Positions 50,756 through 62,510 of a stretch of DNA of 64,000 nucleotides are shown piece by piece. The notes below the pieces were generated by a model that was not told where the DNA came from, made no database searches, and was given only the letters and a program-made list of their open reading frames with translations. Position 1 is the stretch's first letter. Every line of letters starts with the position of its first letter. Position numbers and translations under genes: made by a program. The DNA comes from an uncultured delta proteobacterium (GTDB taxonomy: Bacteria > Myxococcota_A > Polyangia > Polyangiales > B10-G4): positions 864,001-928,000 of the forward strand of contig CAVSGI010000009.1 in assembly GCA_963727445.1 (NCBI GenBank). Reading direction: 5' to 3'.

Positions 50756-52432
<1,677 letters not shown>

Positions 52433-52453
52433 GCCGCCCCTCTCCGACCCGGC

Positions 52454-52580
52454 GGGGACGTCGTTCACTTTTGACGCAACCCAGGCGAGCGCGATCGAAC
52501 GCGGGTCGTTGCCGGATCGCGCGACCCGCGCTGGTCAAAAGTGCACTGCGTCCCCTTCCAACGTCCTTGGGGGGGACGCA
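52454..52580 (+). other. Nested inverted-repeat (structured) element downstream of ettA
   Basis: CACTTTTGAC/GTCAAAAGTG, GCGCGATC/GATCGCGC, CGCGGGTCG/CGACCCGCG, TGCGTCCCC/GGGGACGCA. Confidence 0.75.
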
Positions 52581-52759
52581 CGGATTCGGAGTTCGGATTC
52601 GGAGTTCGGATTCGGAGTTCGGATTCGGATTCGGAGTTCGGAGTTCGGATTCGGAGTTCGGATTCGGTGTCGGATTCGGATTCGGATTCGGAGTTCGGTG
52701 TCGGATTCGGATTCGGAGTCGGGGGCGGGTTCGGATTCGGAGTTCGGAGTTCGGATTCG
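52581..52759 (+). repeat. Mixed 6/7-bp microsatellite (CGGATT / CGGAGTT / CGGTGT), 179 bp
   Basis: Directly visible. Confidence 0.95.
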
Positions 52760-52764
52760 TGATC

Positions 52765-52827
52765 GGACCCTGAGGTGCGTGGTGTTGCTCATGGGGGGTA
52801 TGAGCAACACCACGCACCTCAGGGTCC
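52765..52827 (+). promoter_or_regulatory. Perfect 28-bp hairpin pairing with the first 28 nt of the four-helix-bundle gene; loop GGGGGGT
   Basis: GGACCCTGAGGTGCGTGGTGTTGCTCAT / ATGAGCAACACCACGCACCTCAGGGTCC. Confidence 0.9.
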
Positions 52828-53138
52828 TTCGGGATACGATCCAAATCATTCGGGAGCTTCGGCCGGTCATCGGGCGGCTGAAGAAGCGGAACGCGAAGCT
52901 AGCGGATCAGCTGGAGCGGGCCGCGACGAGCAGCGCGTTGAACCAGGGCGAAGGGAATGCGATGCGGGGCGGCAATCGCCGCAAGCACTTCGACATCGCG
53001 CTGGGCTCGACCCAGGAAGTGAGGGTCGCCCTCGAGACGGCGGCGGCCCTCGGGTACATCCCCGACGAGATCGTCACCCGATTCGATCCACGACTCGACT
53101 CGATCTGCGCGCGGCTGTATCGGCTCGCAGGGTATTGA
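52800..53138 (+). CDS. Four-helix-bundle protein (23S rRNA IVP / Avd-like superfamily)
   Basis: LADQLERAATSSALNQGEG, HFDIALGSTQEV, A..LGYI motifs; 112 aa. Confidence 0.88.
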   Translation: MSNTTHLRVLRDTIQIIRELRPVIGRLKKRNAKLADQLERAATSSALNQGEGNAMRGGNRRKHFDIALGSTQEVRVALETAAALGYIPDEIVTRFDPRLDSICARLYRLAGY

Positions 53139-53169
53139 GCGGCTCGCGGCGAGAAGCATCGGAGATTCG

Positions 53170-53206
53170 CGCGCGCGATCACTTTCCCCGGGGAAAGGAT
53201 GCGCGC
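53170..53206. other. Bulged palindrome GCGCGC(G)ATC(A)CTTTCCCC|GGGGAAAG-GAT-GCGCGC (motif M, copy 1)
   Basis: First 26 nt identical to 58837..58862. Confidence 0.75.
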
Positions 53207-53501
53207 CTGAGCTCTCCCTCCGCCGTTCGGTCCGCGCTCAAAGACTGCCGCTGAGACTCTGGTCGATCCACTTTGTCACCCCTCTGGGGGGACAAGCCTC
53301 TGCGCGTTGCACTGCGAAGCCATTCGCTGCGCGACGAATGAATCGTGACGAACCGAAGCGATCGAACTCCTTCGTCACAATCTCTGCCGTCGTGCCACTC
53401 ACCCCACGGGACGTCCGTATGCGTAACCGCAGTTGCGAACGAGTTGGGGGGGGGGTGTACGTTCATTGCACAGCTCTTGTGAGCAGAATAGGGGGGCCGC
53501 G

Positions 53502-55466
53502 ATGGGAATTCGAGGTCTACGAACCGAGCATGTGCTCGCGCTGTTCGTCGGGCTGCTCTCGATCGTGGCGAGTCCCGTGCGTGCGCAACAGCGACGCGCC
53601 GGGCCGCCCTTTCGCAACGACATCGTCGCGTCGTTCAGCAGCGGCACCGTCCTCATCGACGTCGACGGCTCCACCGCGATTACGACGATCACCGGCGGAC
53701 GGATGGCGCTCTCGACAGACAACGTCCATTGCACGCCAACAACCGCGGCACCATGCCCGTATACCGTCCTCGATCTGCGCGTCGCCGTGGCCGATTTTTC
53801 GATCGAAGGCCTCGACTTCGAGGAGGTCGCGCTCCTCAACGCCATCACCGCCGTCGATCGACCGGATGACGGGAGCGGGCTCCACGTTCGCCCAGTGATT
53901 CCATACTGGGTATTTGGCCGACTCGACGGAGAGCCCTTCGGGTTTCGCACGACACCAGACATGACCGAAGACGTGTTGGAGATCATGGATCTCGTGGTCA
54001 CACCAACCGAGAACCACGCCACGATCTTCGGCCACCTCTCGGGAACGATCGGGTCGCTGCACGTGCGCGCCACCATCATGGCGAGCGCAGACGAGCCGTT
54101 CGACAACGTTCCACCCGTCGCCGATGCCGGTCGCGATGTGTCGGCGACGACATCCTGTATCGCCGACGTGCTACCCGACGCGTCCGGGACCTTCGACCCG
54201 AACGGCAACGAAACGGGCGCGTGGTGGGAGCTGAACCAGTACGGCCTCGCGGAATCCGAAGACCCCGTACGACTCCAGCCGGGCGACTACGATCTCACGC
54301 TGGTCGCGCGGGACGACTTTGGTGGGGAAGCGAAGGACACGACGTTCGTCCACGTGAGTGACGACGGGACGAGCCCACCGCTCCCGGGCATGGCTGTCGT
54401 CTCGTTCGAGGTTCCTCCGGGGTCGGCGCCCGAGCGCTTCGCGCTCGTGGGAAGCGACGGCATCGAGCTGAAACCGAACGCTTCGGTGCTGACCGCCGAC
54501 AGTCGCGGTGCACCCGTATCGAGTGGTGGAGCGCTCACGATGAGCGTGAGTTCGCACGCGGGCGAGAGCTACGTTGCTGACGACACCCTGCTTCGGAACC
54601 GTGCGTGGATCGAGGGGGCGCTCCACGCGGGCGCCGGAGTGCAAACGGGTCACGACGTACGCATCGACGGGGGTATCCTGCGTGATGGGCCGTACGAGCC
54701 AGGTGTCGTCACGAGCTTCTACGTACCCACCGTGCCCCGCGAAGCGCCCTCGGTCGTCCTCCGACCCGGTGAGCACGCCAGCCTGGTTCCGGGGGCCTAC
54801 GAGCGTATCGCGCTCGGCCCAGGCGCGGTGCTCGAGCTCGCGCCCGGCGTATACGCAGTAAACGACCTGCGAGTTCCGCCGAACGCTCAGCTCCTCACGC
54901 GTGAGCAGGGCGAAGGCGTCCCTTCGATCCTCGCCGTGCACCAGACTGCCTTCTACCACGGCGATATCGTGGCAACCGAAGGCACGCCCTCACTCCTCAT
55001 CGCGTATCTCGGCATCGAGGCCTGGACGATCCACTCCGCCTTCAACGGCTGGATCGTCGCGCCGAACGCGACCCTCGTCCTCGCCGGTGTCGCGCACCGA
55101 GGCGGATTCATCGCCAGGCAGATCCTCGTGCAGCCACACGCCGTGATTACCCAGCAGGCTCTCTCCTGGGCGTTCGTCCGCGATTCACGTAACGCGTGCG
55201 CCCTCGAACCGCGGGTCACGTGCGTGAAAGAGGGCCCGGGCGGCCTCGTGGCGGTGTTCGGATATCGAAACGTGCTCGAGCACATCGGCGCGTTCGTCCC
55301 GGCGGGTCCGTTCAATCGGGTCGATGGATCGGCGAGGCCACCGCCGCCGTTCTTCTGGCCCGGGCAGGTGGACGAAGCGTTCGCAGTCTCCTTCACGGAG
55401 CGAGCCACCTGGGTCCTCGGCGGCCGGACCGCGACCGCAACGGAAGGGAGCACGCGATGTCCATGA
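53502..55466 (+). CDS. Secreted multidomain protein (PKD-like domain, beta-rich C-terminus)
   Basis: Signal peptide VRA-Q; NVPPVADAG...DASGTFDP PKD-like segment; atypical codon usage. Confidence 0.72.
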   Translation: MGIRGLRTEHVLALFVGLLSIVASPVRAQQRRAGPPFRNDIVASFSSGTVLIDVDGSTAITTITGGRMALSTDNVHCTPTTAAPCPYTVLDLRVAVADFSIEGLDFEEVALLNAITAVDRPDDGSGLHVRPVIPYWVFGRLDGEPFGFRTTPDMTEDVLEIMDLVVTPTENHATIFGHLSGTIGSLHVRATIMASADEPFDNVPPVADAGRDVSATTSCIADVLPDASGTFDPNGNETGAWWELNQYGLAESEDPVRLQPGDYDLTLVARDDFGGEAKDTTFVHVSDDGTSPPLPGMAVVSFEVPPGSAPERFALVGSDGIELKPNASVLTADSRGAPVSSGGALTMSVSSHAGESYVADDTLLRNRAWIEGALHAGAGVQTGHDVRIDGGILRDGPYEPGVVTSFYVPTVPREAPSVVLRPGEHASLVPGAYERIALGPGAVLELAPGVYAVNDLRVPPNAQLLTREQGEGVPSILAVHQTAFYHGDIVATEGTPSLLIAYLGIEAWTIHSAFNGWIVAPNATLVLAGVAHRGGFIARQILVQPHAVITQQALSWAFVRDSRNACALEPRVTCVKEGPGGLVAVFGYRNVLEHIGAFVPAGPFNRVDGSARPPPPFFWPGQVDEAFAVSFTERATWVLGGRTATATEGSTRCP

Positions 55467-55840
55467 CGCGTCATGTTCGTTTATCGGGGGTGGTGCTCGC
55501 AGCCGTCCTGTGTTTCTCGTGCGGCTCATCATCCGACGAGGTGCCCCCGACCGGCGTCGACCTCGACACGCCGGTGGAGTCGCTGGCGGGTTGGAGCGCG
55601 CTGATCGCGTCGATGGACCTTCCCGAAAATCGCGACGTCGGCTTGGCGAGCTGGGTGGAGACCTTTCGGGAAGGCCTGGACATCGCGCGTATGGGCGCGA
55701 CGCCGACCGATCGCGAGGAAGCCGAGACCGCGTGGTGGAATGAGGCGCGCCGTGCACTCCCCGCCATCGTCGGAACCGACAACGTCGATCGCGTCATCGC
55801 ATGGCTCGAGATGCTCTACGGCAACCGGGGGACGCCATGA
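55463..55840 (+). CDS. Small lipoprotein
   Basis: ATGA overlaps on both sides; lipobox-like CFSC. Confidence 0.65.
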   Translation: MTRHVRLSGVVLAAVLCFSCGSSSDEVPPTGVDLDTPVESLAGWSALIASMDLPENRDVGLASWVETFREGLDIARMGATPTDREEAETAWWNEARRALPAIVGTDNVDRVIAWLEMLYGNRGTP

Positions 55841-57674
55841 CACCGAAGCTCCAGCTGAGCCTTGCCGGCGCGATCACGGTATCGAGCCTCGTCGGGTGTG
55901 GCGGTGACGCTCACCCCCCGCCTCCTTCCCGTTGCTTCTCCGAGCAGAGCGTGATCACCTGCACGGCCAGCGCGACGGGCGTATGCTTGGAATACGACAT
56001 GACCGGCGCTTGCATCGGTGGAAGAGAAGACCAACCCGACCACGTTCCGGCCGAGGTCGTTGCGCTCGGTCATCCGCCCTGCGGTGCCTACGCACGGTTT
56101 GGGGTGACTCGGCCCGATGGCGGGCCACCGACCCCGGAGGAAGGCCAGGCTGAGTGTGAGCGGATTGATTGCGGTGATTGCGAGGCTCCTCCAGTAGACG
56201 GTGGGGTCGCCCCTTGTGAGTCCTGTGCCGCGACCTTCGTCGCTTGGGGGATGGAATGCCCTCCCGAAGACAGGACGTTGAGCGCCTGCCCCGAGGAGAG
56301 GCGTGGTGGCACTAGCACCGGGAGTGGTGATGGCGGCGTCGATGGCAGCGAGACACCCGAGCCCGGCTCCTTCCGCATCCTCAGCTTCCCCTGGGCCGGC
56401 CCGGGCGGGGGCATTGGGGACCCGGTCGCCGAGACCGAGCTGCCCGACGCATTGGCACCGACCGGCGGCATCACCGTCGTACGGATGGAAGTCCTGCCCG
56501 AGCTCGGCGCGCACGAGCCGCGCCTCTTCGTCGTCACCAGCGGCGTCGCCGGAGGTACGCCGCCGTTGGTGGCTGCGTTCACATTCGAGCCGAACGCGGA
56601 CGGAACCGGAGCCGAGGGCGTCCTCGACTACGGCCTCGACACGGATGGAGACGGCGATCCGGACAGCCCCTTTCCGCTGCCTGTTCCCGCCGCGCGCGGG
56701 GGCACCGCCGCCGTCACCTCGGTCGACTTCTTCACGGCCCTCTCGAGCGACGACCCCTGGGCGCTCGTCGGCACCACGAGTGGCGTCTTCCTCTTCGACA
56801 TGACCGAGGATGGTCCGATAGCCATCGTGGACCCGCTGTCCGCCGATCCCACGATGACCGGCACGGGCGCGGCGGTCGTCGCTAACATCTCCACGTTCTA
56901 CGGTCTGGATCCGGTGTTTCACGATCCGCTGGCTGGACAGACGTGGACGGCGTTCACGACCTCGATGACAGCGACCTCGACGTTGACCGTCACGCAGAAC
57001 CTCGGCGGACCTTCTCCGCAAGGAACGCTTACGAGCGCCTCAACAGATGGGGTATCGCGGAGCATGAGCGTCGCGGGAACCCCCGACTTTCCTCCGGGAA
57101 TCTGGGTCGGGGAAGTCCCGGCCGAAATCGAGAGCTTTCAATCGGGAAGCTTCTCTCCGGCAACGCTAGCCCGAAGAGAATCGGTCTCCGTCGAGGGCCC
57201 ACTAACCGTCAGCGCGCTCGCCGGTCCCGTCGCGACGAGCGCGAGCGATCAGCTCGTCGCCGCGCTCGACTCCACGAGCGGTGCGCCCACCGTCTCACTC
57301 CAGGCGTTCACCGGGGGAACCTCGACAACGTCCCGGCGATGACCGACTTCGCTGGTACCGTCGTCGGAATGGAACCGGTCGTTCTCGGGCCGGGAGGCCC
57401 GGTGGGGCCCGGCGTCTTTGGCGAGTTCTACGTCATCGTCCTGAGTCGCGGCCCGGGTGTGATCCGCGTGTTCTACCCGAGGACCGCGACCGCCGGCGGG
57501 TTCATCCTGAACGACGAGCAGGACCTGGAAGCGACGCTCACGCCCCTGGCATTCGCGCTTGGCCTCGAGCCGGGCGAGATCCCCGAGATACCCCCTCCCC
57601 CGGAGGAGCCGGAGCCGGAGGCGGGGCTCGCGTTCATCCACGTCCTGGTTCTCGAGGCGCCGACGGGGCCCTGA
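55837..57674 (+). CDS. Cys-rich lipoprotein, frameshift in a G-run near 57315
   Basis: Lipobox LVGC; coding continues in the frame of ORF 56943..57674. Confidence 0.68.
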
Positions 57675-57686
57675 GGTCGGAGGAGG

Positions 57687-58718
57687 ATGAGCAAGACGTT
57701 CATTGCAGCGGCCCTCCTCGCGCTTGGAACGGCGTGCAGCGGGCCGCCTGCGACGAACGACGCGAGCATGCCCGACGGTGGAGCGGGTGACGCGGGGACG
57801 ACAGGTTTCCTCACCGTGAGCAGCGTACACCGCGGAAACTGTGCCCTTCATTCGTCGAGGCGCGCGGTGTGCTGGGGGGACATCAACCCGGATGGTTTCT
57901 GGATCGACGATGTCGACGAGGCGGAAGCCGGCTTCGGGCCCTGCTTTCTTCGGGGTACGACGGCGATGTGTTTCAGGGTGGCGGACCTCGGCATGCAACC
58001 GTGGCCCGTCCCCCCTGCGGACTACCGAATGGTAGGCGCCGGCAACGCCCAAGCGTGCGGGCTCCGCACGGATGGGTCCGCGATTTGCTGGGACGCGGCC
58101 GGGCGCATCTACGACAATGATCCAATCTACACCGAAAGGTTCTTGAAGATCCGAGTCGATTGGGCGTTGGCGTGTGGGATCACCGAGTCCGGAAGCGCCT
58201 CGTGCTGGAACATTGGTATCCCTCCCGAGACGTTGTTTCCTGCACCGCTTCCCGGCGACGAGTACATCGATGCCAGCAACGATGGTTTCTCTTCGTGTGG
58301 AATCAATCTAGCCGGTGAGGTTCGGTGCGCGCCAGGAATCTGTCGCGTGGACGGGGCCACCGGCGAGACGACCTGCAACGAGCCGACCTTCCCAGCCGCC
58401 GACGGCGGGCGAGAGACGTGGTCCGAAGCCGCGGGCGATCCGCCGCCCGGGCCGTTCACGAAGATCTCCATGATGGCAGATGCCAGAAGCGCGGGTCTTT
58501 GCGCCCTCAGGCCCACCGGTGAGGTCGTCTGCTGGGGCCGGGCGTACGAGATGTACCTGCGCGACACCGAGCCTCACGGCGTCTTGTTCCGCGACATCGC
58601 CACAGGTTCCAGTCACGCCTGCGGCGTCACTCTCGACGATGGCGAGATCCTCTGCTGGGGCACCGCGCCCCCCGGCCAGGACTTCGGCCAGACGCGGCCC
58701 CCGCCGCCAGGGCCGTGA
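57687..58718 (+). CDS. Divergent RCC1-like repeat lipoprotein
   Basis: GGAGGAGG SD; lipobox GTAC; repeated ACG....G...CW(G). Confidence 0.78.
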   Translation: MSKTFIAAALLALGTACSGPPATNDASMPDGGAGDAGTTGFLTVSSVHRGNCALHSSRRAVCWGDINPDGFWIDDVDEAEAGFGPCFLRGTTAMCFRVADLGMQPWPVPPADYRMVGAGNAQACGLRTDGSAICWDAAGRIYDNDPIYTERFLKIRVDWALACGITESGSASCWNIGIPPETLFPAPLPGDEYIDASNDGFSSCGINLAGEVRCAPGICRVDGATGETTCNEPTFPAADGGRETWSEAAGDPPPGPFTKISMMADARSAGLCALRPTGEVVCWGRAYEMYLRDTEPHGVLFRDIATGSSHACGVTLDDGEILCWGTAPPGQDFGQTRPPPPGP

Positions 58719-58727
58719 GGGTCGAAT

Positions 58728-58799
58728 CGGCACAAGCCGCTGGGGGATGCGGCGGACGTGCCGAAGCAGATCGAGTATCGGAAGCTGACGCGGAGTTGA
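58728..58799 (+). pseudogene. ettA: Diverged fragment of the ettA 3' end
   Basis: Translates [23 protein letters not shown] vs Ett[24 protein letters not shown]. Confidence 0.85.
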
Positions 58800-58836
58800 A
58801 GGCGATCCAAGTCCGACTCATCGAGACGGCGGCGCC

Positions 58837-58862
58837 CGCGCGCGATCACTTTCCCCGGGGAA
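58837..58862. repeat. Motif M, copy 2
   Basis: CGCGCGCGATCACTTTCCCCGGGGAA identical to 53170..53195. Confidence 0.8.
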
Positions 58863-58909
58863 TGGACATCGCTGTCACAGCAGCCCGAAAGGCTCCAGGT
58901 GTCGCGGGC

Positions 58910-59392
58910 TCATTCGTCGAGGTCGTCGATCAGACCTGCCTCCTCGAGCATCGCGATATCGGCCTGATCCTTCGGCCGTCCCGCCGCGCGTTTCGTGAGC
59001 ACGTACTCGCGCTTTCCGAGAAAGGGAACCGTCTGGTCGTCGATGGTGATCTCGTTGCGGCCGCGCCATGCTTCTTCGAAGGTGACGCCATCGATGCCGG
59101 TCGTCACGTCGATCGCCAGTGGCGCTCGACCGATCGAGAACATCCGATCTCGTTCGGACATGTGCATAGGGATCTTCGCGACCAGCCTCTCGAACCCTCC
59201 GAACTCCGCGAGAGCATCGGCGAGCCGTCGTGCGTTCTCGCCTGACGCTTCGACGAAGACGTCGAGATCGTCTGAGAAGCGCGGCCTACCCAGCGTCGCC
59301 AGGACGTGGGCGCCGATCACCACGAAGCGAACGTCGTGGCGCTTCAGCGAGAACAAAAACTCTTTGAAGTCGCTGTGAAGGGCCGTCTTCAT
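58910..59392 (-). CDS. Predicted nucleotidyltransferase (DUF6036-like)
   Basis: FVVIGAHVL...GRPRFSDDLDVFV, IDGVTFEEAW, KRAAGRPKDQADI. Confidence 0.82.
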   Translation of the reverse strand: MKTALHSDFKEFLFSLKRHDVRFVVIGAHVLATLGRPRFSDDLDVFVEASGENARRLADALAEFGGFERLVAKIPMHMSERDRMFSIGRAPLAIDVTTGIDGVTFEEAWRGRNEITIDDQTVPFLGKREYVLTKRAAGRPKDQADIAMLEEAGLIDDLDE

Positions 59393-59531
59393 AGGCGCTC
59401 GTCCGTAGCTCTTCCAAGGCGATGAGTCCCTCGATGGGTGTCAACGCGGCGGCACGCTCGCGAATGAAGCGCTCGTTGTCGCTGGTCTGACCCAAGCGAA
59501 ATGACTCGTCCACGTGGATAGTGTGCCGCAT
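59286..59531 (-). CDS. Small partner protein overlapping the nucleotidyltransferase start (candidate TA partner)
   Basis: 81-aa ORF ...LTPIEGLIALEELR...RLQRVF, overlapping the downstream gene. Confidence 0.55.
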   Translation of the reverse strand: MRHTIHVDESFRLGQTSDNERFIRERAAALTPIEGLIALEELRTSAYEDGPSQRLQRVFVLAEAPRRSLRGDRRPRPGDAG

Positions 59532-59589: not shown

Positions 59590-60036
<447 letters not shown>

Positions 60037-60184
60037 GCCGCCCCTCTCCGACCCGGCGGGGACGTCGTTCACTTTTGACGCAACCCAGGCGAGCGCGATC
60101 GAACGCGGGTCGTTGCCGGATCGCGCGACCCGGGCTGGTCAAAAGTGCACTGCGTCCCCTTCCAACGTCCTTGGGGGGGACGCA

Positions 60185-60342
60185 CGGATTCGGAGGTCGG
60201 ATTCGGAGGTCGGATTCGGAGGTCGGATTCGGATTCGGATTCGGTGTCGGATTCGGATTCGGATTCGGAGTTCGGTGTCGGATTCGGATTCGGAGTCGGG
60301 GGCGGGGGCGGATTCGGAGTTCGGATTCGGAGTTCGGATTCG
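60185..60342 (+). repeat. Microsatellite copy B (CGGATT / CGGAGGT / CGGAGTT / CGGTGT), 158 bp
   Basis: Directly visible. Confidence 0.95.
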
Positions 60343-60347
60343 TGATC

Positions 60348-60410
60348 GGACCCTGAGGTGCGTGGTGTTGCTCATGGGGGGTATGAGCAACACCACGCAC
60401 CTCAGGGTCC
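60348..60410 (+). promoter_or_regulatory. Perfect 28-bp hairpin over the start of the four-helix-bundle gene, copy B
   Basis: Identical to 52765..52827. Confidence 0.9.
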
Positions 60411-60721
60411 TTCGGGATACGATCCAAATCATTCGTGAGCTTCGGCCGGTCATCGGGCGGCTGAAGAAGCGGAACGCGAAGCTGGCGGATCAGCTGGAGC
60501 GGGCCGCGACGAGCAGCGCGTTGAACCAGGGCGAAGGGAATGCGATGCGGGGCGGCAATCGCCGCAAGCACTTCGACATCGCGCTGGGCTCGACCCAGGA
60601 AGTGAGGGTCGCCCTCGAGACGGCGGCGGCCCTCGGGTACATCCCCGACGAGATCGTCACCCGATTCGATCCACGACTCGACTCGATCTGCGCGCGGCTG
60701 TATCGGCTCGCGGGGTATTGA
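60383..60721 (+). CDS. Four-helix-bundle protein, copy B (identical protein)
   Basis: Same 112-aa sequence; 3 synonymous SNPs. Confidence 0.88.
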   Translation: MSNTTHLRVLRDTIQIIRELRPVIGRLKKRNAKLADQLERAATSSALNQGEGNAMRGGNRRKHFDIALGSTQEVRVALETAAALGYIPDEIVTRFDPRLDSICARLYRLAGY

Positions 60722-60725
60722 GCGG

Positions 60726-62510
60726 GGCTCGCGAATGGCGTCCGCCGGCGGCCCGGCGGCGGATCGCCGATTCGGCGGCGCAACTGCCGACAATCACTGA
60801 CCGTGATGCGGGCACAGATGTTGCCGAGCCGCGTGCGTGCAGCGCCTCTCGTCGACGTCGCGGAAGTATGCCCGCCGCGACCGCGAGCGCTCCGCTCTGC
60901 ACCAGACGGTCCGTGAGCACCTCGAGACGTTCCTGGCGGAGACCCGGACCACGGACCGGGACGGCGTCGGTGTTCCGGCTTTCGTCGAGGCTGAGCTCCG
61001 GCGCTTCCTCGAATGCGGCGTCCTCGCTCATGGCTTCGCGCGCTTTCGCTGCGACGCGTGCGGCACGGACCGCCTCGTGGCGTTTAGCTGCAAGGGTCGC
61101 GGTTTCTGCCCTTCCTGCGGCGGGCGCCGCATGACCGCGCAGGCGGCGCACCTCGTCGACGAGGTCCTACCACCGGTCCGCATGCGGCAATGGGTGCTCA
61201 GCCTCCCCTTCGAGCTCCGCTATCGTCTCGCCTTCGACCACGAGCTCAGTCGCGCCGTCCTCGCCGTCTTCACGCGGGCGATCTTCGGCTTCCTCCGGGA
61301 CCGCGCGAAGAGGCGCGGGCATCCAGGAGGTCGCGCAGGCAGCGTCACGGTCATCCAGCGCTTCGGCGGCGCGCTCAATCTCAATCCGCACTTCCACACG
61401 CTCGTCCCGGATGGGGTGTTCCTCGAGGCGCCGGATGGATTCGGTCCGCTTTCACCGCCTCCCGCCCCCGACTGACGAGGAGGTCGCGGCCCTGCTCACC
61501 ACCCTCGTCGCGCGTCTGCGGCGCCTGTTGATCCGCCGCGGCGTCTGGCGGGAGGGCGACGACGGAACGGACTACGTCGATCCCACCCTTCACGAGCGCC
61601 TCGGCGCCGCCGCCATCCAGCAGGTCGCGCTCACCGGTCCGCGGGCACTTCTCTCCACGCGCCGCATCCGGACCGCTCCGCCCAAGACGTCACCGAAAGT
61701 CCTCGGCCGCCGCCGCGCCCGCCAGGACGGATTCGACCTGCACGCCAACACCGCCGTGCGCGGCAAGAACCGCCCGCGACTCGAGCGCATCTGCCGCTAC
61801 CTGCTCCGGCCCCCCGTGTCGGAGTCGCGCATCGAGCGGCACGGCGATCGTGTGCTGCTCACTCTGAAGACCCCCTACGATGACGGCACCACGCACCTGA
61901 GCTTCGAGCCCACCGAGCTCCTCGGGCGCCTCGCCGCCCTCGTCCCCCGCCCTCAGAAGAATCTCCTCCTCTACCACGGCGTCTTCGCGGCCAACGCGAA
62001 GCTGCGCAAGCAGGTCGTCGCGTACGGGCGTCCCTCCGAGCCAGGCAAGGGCCCGAAGCACAGCACGTCCAAACGCAAGCGTCACAACCCGAGCTGGGCA
62101 GAGCTCATGCGTCGCGGCCTCGACATCGACGCGCTCGAATGCCCGAAGTGCCACTCCCGCATGCGCTTCGTCGCCTCAATCCTGAGACCGGCCACCATCC
62201 GCCGCATCCTCGAGAGCCTCGACCTGCCGGCAGAGCCAGTCGTGCCCGCCCCGGCGCGCGCACCGCCCAACGACGACGACCTCTTCTTCGACGTCGCCTG
62301 AGCGGCTCCGTTCGAGTCGTCGACGTCGCGATCCGTCCGCCGCTCGACCCTCGCCTGAAGATCGGGTCATCATGCCTTTCATGCCCCGTCCGGTTTCCAG
62401 CCTCCACGGAAGCCAACCCCTTCACCGGACGCCCGAGTTTCGCAGTAGGTATGATCTGTCGACTCGCGCCTCCGGCGGGAGTGGCGGGAGGCCGTTTGTG
62501 ATGGCTATCC
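60726..62510 (+). mobile_element. IS91/ISCR-like element (ends inferred)
   Basis: Transposase plus oriIS-like CCGTTTGTGATGGCTATCC at 62492..62510, followed by a visible shift to AT-richer DNA; imperfect hairpin upstream. Confidence 0.6.
60837..62301 (+). CDS. IS91-family (HUH Y2, rolling-circle) transposase with N-terminal Zn-binding domain, frameshift near 61440
   Basis: CGVLAHGFARFRC..C, AFSCKGRGFCPSCG, RQWVLSLP, NPHFHTLV (HUH), LERICRYLLRP, YHGVFA, C-terminal CPKC. Confidence 0.92.

Follow-up and report, generated by a model that had tools for sequence, protein, structure and literature searches.

A microsatellite-armed cassette with a four-helix-bundle gene behind ettA of a myxobacterial genome, probably a core-less member of a widespread family copied by an ISCR element

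In a 64,000-nucleotide stretch of the genome of an uncultured delta proteobacterium (hereafter the window), the DNA behind ettA includes a small cassette formed by a microsatellite, a hairpin that pairs the start codon, and a gene of the PF05635/TIGR02436 family; the layout of microsatellite, hairpin and four-helix-bundle gene is order-wide. These three parts are the cassette proper, and the 700-bp unit that a preliminary description had taken for a single module is a composite. On balance we favour the reading that the locus is one member of a widespread myxobacterial cassette lying behind ettA, which adjoins an unrelated REP-type palindrome, has lost the core of its leader, and has been copied by an ISCR element. 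A broader proposal, possible but doubtful, comes from the comparison of leader sequences: four-helix cassettes of myxobacteria may carry two kinds of single-stranded DNA (ssDNA) promoters, the ancestral class of the window copy being a sigma54-type fold-back with a melted bubble, and the cassettes would then be selfish genes of the chromosome that sense ssDNA, switch on when DNA is transposed by rolling circle, transferred or damaged, and spread via their microsatellite arms.

Results and discussion

Architecture of the region behind ettA

The window carries an intact ettA host gene (ABC-F, 50756 to 52432, plus strand, TIGR03719 above cut-off), followed by a REP/TIR-type palindrome at 52454 to 52555 (GGGGAC...CACTTTTGAC / GTCAAAAGTG...GTCCCC), which is a variant of a dispersed family, and by a small hairpin (GCGTCCCC / GGGGACGC, 52548 to 52579) that overlaps the right arm of this palindrome. 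The left arm of the cassette is a CGGATT/CGGAGTT microsatellite (52581 to 52759, plus strand) made of 6- and 7-nt units, with a TRF score of 249, whose length varies across the three copies in the genome. The start-codon hairpin (52765 to 52827, plus strand) has arms at 52765-52792 and 52800-52827 that form a perfect 28-bp stem with a 7-nt loop, and the start codon lies within the pairing; it corresponds to the outer stem of the leaders named class II below, without their inner promoter-like stem-loop. The 423-nt region that includes this hairpin folds with a z of -10.2 versus shuffled sequences. The gene for the four-helix-bundle protein (112 aa, 52800 to 53138, plus strand) was recognized by profile matches and a structure model. 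The microsatellite, the start-pairing hairpin and the ORF are all present as described earlier, supported by the TRF score, the perfect 28-bp stem and the PF05635/TIGR02436 matches, and the unit does occur twice, at 52433-53148 and 60037-60733.

A fusion to ettA or a long upstream ORF was considered as well; the frame is open back to 52422, but with just four stops in the three frames this is unremarkable. Rfam gave nothing at gathering score in the window, only sub-threshold matches to miRNA-like hairpins.

Outside the cassette, the dispersed palindrome motif M (core TTTCCCCGGGGAAA) is located at 53170 to 53207. Cargo genes encoding PKD-like, RCC1-repeat and unknown proteins (53433 to 58718, plus strand) are placed between ettA-derived repeats, and are followed on the same strand by a diverged ettA tail (83%) with a 37-nt remnant that carries ORF pieces and a further motif M (58723 to 58870). 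Next come a promoterless 3' fragment of ettA (59590 to 60036, plus strand) and the second copy (60037 to 60733, plus strand), which includes the palindrome, the microsatellite (60185-60342), the hairpin (60348-60410) and the ORF (60383-60721). The series ends with an IS91/ISCR-type HUH transposase gene split over two frames (60837 to 62301, plus strand; matches to PF14319, PF04986 and NF052416) and the ori-type end repeat of the ISCR element (62389 to 62510, plus strand), for which blastn finds 46 places in the genome.

The 700-bp unit is a composite

The limits that had been proposed for the unit did not hold. It was said to start at the ettA stop codon; the duplicated segment (51986-53148 and 59590-60733, 95% identity) instead begins inside ettA and includes its last 447 nt. 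The pentamer TGAGC, present at both ends and a candidate target duplication, consists of a stop codon followed by GC, and many genes end in it; it terminates 493 of 2569 (19%) long high-GC3 ORFs in this genome, and a copy on contig C12 has TGACG on the left in its place. A target duplication, as expected for a MITE or an insertion sequence, was therefore not found for the unit in the window, and the junctions of the paralogue on C14 carry no terminal repeats; by these features the element is not a MITE. The unit was also reported to be absent at the diverged ettA tail near 58799; in the 37-nt spacer there, 14 nt of the ORF (53032-53045) recur exactly, together with a stretch of 8 nt (52837-52844). 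Matches of at least 14 nt were obtained for 11 of 20,000 random genomic 37-mers, some of them taken from the unit's own copies. Given the 14-nt piece, this tail is likely a deletion remnant and not an empty site.

The structured leader of the preliminary description turned out to be a separate REP/TIR-type palindrome that is not specific to the cassette. In this genome, the main GGGGAC-ended family to which it is related numbers 174 arms, grouped in 55 clusters, and flanks a Y1 transposase gene on contig C9. The variant at 52454-52555 occurs only at four ettA-derived sites, and near-identical arms are present in three Parvibacter stretches, between unrelated genes. TIR repeats of this type, with the motif GGGGWSAS, are described in the available part of PMC3733652. 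The palindrome resembles the RAYT/TIRYT-associated REP/TIR repeats through its likeness to the Y1-flanking family of this genome, and differs from them in that it has one mismatch to GGGGWSAS, is limited to the four ettA-derived sites, and has no cognate transposase identified (PMC3733652, same part). Motif M, which had served as a landmark for the insertion, is likewise a dispersed palindrome, with 6 exact sites and 19 with at most one mismatch in the genome; its copies in the window are at 53170-53207 and 58837-58870. On contig C21, motif M directly follows an ori-type repeat.

These data bear on the original view that the whole of 52433-53142 is one self-contained element, inserted at the ettA stop with duplication of TGAGC. 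Palindrome, microsatellite, hairpin and ORF do travel together in three copies, and they are missing behind ettA in the loci of 29 out of 29 relatives. However, every full copy has ettA bases on its left side, ORF pieces persist at 58799, TGAGC is frequent at gene ends, and the leader belongs to a dispersed palindrome class; a search of 400 genomes of the order, with just two candidates scored per genome, found no convincing match for it (best E 1e-4). We consider this view very improbable.

A cassette family present across the order

Of 31 genomes of the order, 16 have homologues of the four-helix gene, with up to 31 per genome and often as convergent pairs; this genome has 16 PF05635 matches. 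The family sample consisted of the loci from the homologue search plus 60 regions picked from the hit list, in which copies from the same genome are not independent of each other. In this sample, a period-6 tract was present upstream of 90 of 112 homologue starts (starts without a start codon or with short flanks being left out), compared with 26 of 3000 random windows and none of 140 ettA-locus windows, and a stem of at least 28 pairs was found at 92 of 117 starts versus 79 of 300 controls. The repeat unit varies between genomes. Homologues with microsatellite and hairpin at unrelated loci, of the kind that the preliminary description had suggested looking for, do exist, and the family is not confined to positions behind ettA; the case that would have refuted that description does not apply. 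In the literature searched, with subscription papers largely outside it, no description of a microsatellite-armed four-helix-bundle cassette was found.

Some additional features of these tracts were noted. This genome has 105 hexamer tracts of at least 50 bp, 17 of them within 600 bp of a four-helix gene, and 32 with the AACGGG unit of the paired cassettes; by eye, many of the latter seem to be coding, as dipeptide runs. A tandem array in another genome (G023, C6:166880-168790) consists of convergent pairs of four-helix genes with long GGACTC tracts between them. In three metagenome contigs (L157-L159), the four-helix genes appear, by eye, to be broken near the start by the 3' end of a group II intron.

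The protein and its nearest known systems

The window protein is a true PF05635 member; it scores 47.1 bits against PF05635 (cut-off 33.8) and 51 bits against TIGR02436 (cut-off 24). The structure model (pLDDT 95) shows four long helices and matches Xcc0516 (2GSC) with a TM of 0.80, and also BT_0352; the match to Avd (4DWL; TM 0.81, rmsd 1.7, E 0.49, 10% identity) is weaker. Judging from the Avd-like fold of the model, there is about an even chance that the protein binds single-stranded nucleic acid as a ring. A peptide scan of genome contigs gave no close relatives; three distant metagenome loci and one 61% protein were found. The TIGR02436 proteins are a common group; to our knowledge, a function has been assigned to them only in diversity-generating retroelements (DGRs), and the conserved cis-architecture may give a first handle on when they are made.

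Two systems with proteins of this fold were compared with the cassette. ORF-bearing intervening sequences (IVS) of 23S rRNA (S23p; Coxiella, Leptospira), as presented in the part of PMC4990558 consulted, share with it the protein family and fold, and are sporadic, horizontally acquired small elements on a long stem. In contrast, the stem of the cassette lies before and over the start codon and does not enclose the ORF, a microsatellite arm is present, and many copies are located between protein genes. The window element was rejected as a 23S IVS: it is behind ettA and not in a 23S rRNA gene, the window has no Rfam match, and among the repeats listed there is no inverted repeat that pairs the two flanks of the ORF. 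The DGR accessory protein Avd (PDB 4DWL; PMC10053308, in part) is alike in fold and unlike in sequence (10% identity), and the cassette has neither a linked reverse transcriptase nor, among the repeats listed, a template/variable repeat pair. A DGR was also rejected, given that the sole PF00078 match in the genome is on contig C1 and is unlinked.

Leader classes and the hairpin over the start codon

The leaders of the family were grouped by motifs that were defined after inspecting the data, and the leaders of one genome are not independent; the counts below are to be read with this in mind. Class I is of sigma70 type: in 20 leaders, the fold-back arm (the 5' arm read as its reverse complement) has a -35 box, a spacer of 16-18 nt and an xAxxxT box, which the gene-side arm never has; controls have them in 2 of 300. 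The window protein is closest to class II. In this class, the arm of the outer stem pairs with the opening 24 nt of the ORF that it precedes, and the own start was the best partner in 9 of 9 cases (18-24 of 24 positions versus 10-19). For the inner stem, 20 distinct leaders were compared, taken from 10 genomes, and their fold-back arms share the pattern GG-C-R-N-G-N7-C-R-C. The GG is on the fold-back arm in 20/20 and on the gene-side arm in 9/20, so that nine leaders have it on both arms, and GT or GA is found on the gene side in the other 11. After the inner stem there is an unpaired bubble, and an ATG or GTG is located 13-15 nt past the -12 C in 15 of the 20 leaders.

The sigma54 consensus has GG at -25/-24 and GC at -13/-12, ten bases apart. 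The GG/C spacing of class II fits this -24/-12 box; the -13/-12 pair is GC in 6 of 20 leaders, TC in 11 and CC in 3. Sigma54 is encoded in this genome, where N4-spaced boxes number 8, compared with 1 for N3 and 3 for N5. The class II pattern occurs once in the 9.5-Mb genome (G000), in a remnant on contig C8 that shares the outer stem of the window copy; the intact leader is at C8:368300-368450, and nine other genomes also have one. The remnant as a whole (C8:368203-368450) comprises a microsatellite and the intact class II fold-back, and of the four-helix gene, now lost, nine codons remain.

The inner stem with the promoter boxes is missing from all three copies of the window type. Since the intact class II leader of this genome is found only on C8, with a similar outer stem, the perfect hairpin of the window is best read as a deletion form, and it is quite likely that the window copy lost its promoter-like core through a deletion. 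On contig C5 the whole hairpin is gone, a further collapse, and the same junction is present in a contig of DNA run X3. The ORFs of the three copies differ by 8 synonymous changes, 2 non-synonymous ones and a frameshift, the expected synonymous share being 0.26-0.31; by this count, the ORF shows the mark of purifying selection even though all three copies are without the core. The selection on the ORF suggests that the gene may be expressed in another way. The window thus illustrates that a cassette may lose its promoter-like core while its ORF still looks selected, and any model must explain this.

As to the intact leaders, we propose that a class II leader in single-stranded form refolds on the template strand to give a sigma54-like -24/-12 box with a pre-opened bubble, and that the gene is read only then; we hold this step to be nearly, if not quite, an even bet. 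In 12 of 14 class II leaders, 7 of 7 class III leaders and 5 of 14 class I leaders, the more stable fold is that of the template DNA strand and not of the sense strand. The picture across the classes is mixed; the class II value leans toward a role of the hairpin in DNA, and away from the idea of the preliminary description that the protein may bind its own leader as RNA. G.T pairs favour the sense strand by 34 to 10 in class I and are about even, 29 to 23, in class II. Sigma54 normally requires an activator even with a pre-opened bubble, according to the portion of PMC7057263 consulted. The nearest described case is that of the Frpo/ssi ssDNA promoters in the leading regions of conjugative plasmids, in which, as far as the accessible parts of PMC9849209 and PMC11541004 describe them, a fold-back rebuilds promoter boxes before a gene, as it would in the relatives of the window cassette. 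They differ in that the cassette is chromosomal, that the Frpo boxes are -35/-10 and those of the cassette have a -24/-12 look, that the window copy has no core, and that the function of the cassette is a prediction. By this analogy we infer that the intact leaders of the relatives may work like Frpo promoters. A sigma54 single-stranded promoter was not found in the literature searched, and the part of the ssDNA-promoter papers that was checked holds no mention of sigma54. If the -24/-12 fold-back works, single-stranded promoters would reach beyond the sigma70 type and beyond plasmids. The sigma54-like leader class, with leaders of 150 nt, would be a new and testable element.

The same hairpin could instead act in the mRNA, as a translational lock in which the start codon is paired and the G-rich ribosome site lies in the bulge; the lock would be released by the protein, or by RNase III cleavage of the kind known from the 23S IVS, and the window copy would then be permanently locked or differently controlled. 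This would account for the arm that tracks the first 24 nt of each ORF, for a gene-side bulge that is G-rich and SD-like, and for the class I stems that favour G.U on the sense strand, and there is a precedent in the 28-bp terminal stem of the Coxiella IVS, which is cut by RNase III (PMC4990558, in the part consulted). It leaves unexplained, however, why the 5' arm has promoter-like boxes when read as its reverse complement, and why the template strand is the more stable in 12/14 class II and 7/7 class III leaders, and an RNase III cut in this stem would presumably fall inside the ORF; we regard a lock in the mRNA as rather unlikely. Still less likely, in our judgement, is that the boxes of the 5' arm are an ordinary promoter of double-stranded DNA on the minus strand, which would be directed away from the gene and make a small RNA of the microsatellite repeat to be bound by the Avd-like protein. 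In duplex DNA the geometry of the fold-back arm is indeed that of a normal leftward promoter, the microsatellite lies just beyond the boxes in most loci, and Avd acts with a reverse transcriptase and RNA in DGRs (PMC10053308, in part); but this reading does not explain why the partner arm has its bubble exactly at the melting region, nor why the distance to the start codon is fixed, and the single reverse transcriptase match of the genome is on another contig.

Acquisition of the DNA behind ettA

The ettA locus was retrieved from 30 of 102 genomes with a match. A four-helix homologue within about 1.5 kb behind ettA was found in this genome only, and in none of the loci of 29 relatives. In 9 of these 29 the ettA locus includes hrpB, which in a congener starts 10 nt past the ettA stop; here hrpB is on another contig (C21:110196), so that the 3' flank of ettA has been rearranged. 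From these comparisons the sequence behind ettA is an acquisition. Of the insertion between the ettA stop and motif M that had been put forward, the acquired DNA behind ettA stands, and the boundaries and the empty site do not. At base level, no empty ettA allele of this species was found in the contigs of DNA runs X1-X4, which covered parts of the unit only; run X1, which may be related to the sample behind this genome, gave near-identical pieces of the ettA end, the hairpin and the ORF.

Other members of the family were searched for empty sites in congeners. Among seven loci queried in the congener, the site was clean at one (C14 396k); at C25, C27 and C9 186k the left flank alone was conserved, with no cassette after it, and at C6 and C14 128k there were no usable flanks. 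The paired cassette on C14 occupies 1.35 kb, where the congener has 23 bp between these flanks; the microsatellite of the cassette is outermost at the junctions, with no terminal repeats. In genome G299, from another genus, the cassette is missing in 5 of 5 congeners at flanks that are 92-99% identical, and the site borders a gene that is cut mid-way, which marks it as rearranged and not as a clean empty site. The class II flanks of genome G154 had no match in six congeners. We think it highly probable that the cassettes of the family are mobile although they lack a transposase of their own, and that their ends are the microsatellites.

A transposase of the Y1/RAYT type was examined as the mover and rejected as a rule: only 2 of 32 Y1 loci of the clade reach the score met by 90 of 112 cassette starts, no four-helix gene is present at any of these loci, and the clade was found in 8 of 45 genomes and not in several that are rich in cassettes. 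Apart from this, two related RAYT-like Y1 genes lie beside hexamer tracts in this genome (C10:985140-986236 and C9:168000-169900), and the RAYT-like Y1 clade has 45 matches in genome G030 and 10 in genome G002.

Duplication by an IS91/ISCR-type element

In addition to the two copies in the window, the genome has a third, frameshifted copy on C12, which starts with the last 14 nt of ettA and finishes in motif M, and fragments on C21, C10, C5 and C20. The second copy adjoins the upstream side of the IS91/ISCR-type transposase gene, and on C10 there is the same junction between the end of the ORF and the transposase, with bases of the ettA tail ahead of it. The two halves of the neighbouring transposase match PF14319 and PF04986 above cut-off and NF052416 below cut-off in each half, as in an HUH Y2 enzyme with a zinc-binding domain, and uninterrupted copies of 487 aa are found on C10 and C24. 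The ori-type repeat of about 120 bp is downstream of the transposase gene. Five of the eight extra copies or fragments are at most 2 kb upstream of an ori-type repeat on the same strand, versus 89 of 20,000 random sites; the other three are not near one, at 3.5, 10.6 and 70.9 kb.

The preliminary description had considered the unit as possibly mobile; self-mobility as the cause of the two copies is not supported, and the association of the extra copies with ori-type repeats points to rolling-circle capture of the ettA end. IS91/ISCR elements are known to transpose from one end and to take adjacent DNA along, and for ISCR1 the duplication of a neighbouring 3' segment, the 3'-CS, is described (PMC13181058 and PMC3575428, in the parts available). 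The geometry and the enrichment found here fit such one-ended capture. The likeness to IS91/ISCR transposition and to the duplications of ISCR1 complex integrons includes the HUH Y2 transposase, the ori-type end downstream, the captured DNA upstream, the duplicated 3' piece of a neighbouring gene and the lack of a target duplication; the differences are the host and the cargo, the 46 ori-type pieces, which are mostly without a transposase, and the ends, which here were placed by sequence alone (same sources, in part). The ettA fragment differs from the intact gene at 12 sites, all of them silent, as would be expected if the DNA came from the working gene of a sister strain. It is likely that one-ended rolling-circle transposition took the ettA end together with the cassette, and that the nested ettA-tail repeats arose when this DNA re-entered by homologous recombination. 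The window is in this respect a lesser case of the family, a stripped, hitchhiking copy that would be riding on an ISCR element.

The ori-type end itself is 120 bp long with a sharp left edge, and unrelated cargo genes lie between its pieces, mostly with no transposase. Besides the window (62389-62510), arrays of these pieces are found in this genome on C12 (9-55 kb), C21 (0.2-16 kb), C24, C11, C20 and C9 (929-934 kb), and transposase genes that by eye belong to an IS110-like family are located at the right end of several of the repeat copies. Between the ettA-derived repeats of the window, the minus strand at 58910-59505 carries a nucleotidyltransferase gene (DUF2204/AbiEii-like), which has a possible small partner upstream, in an arrangement like that of a two-gene toxin-antitoxin module.
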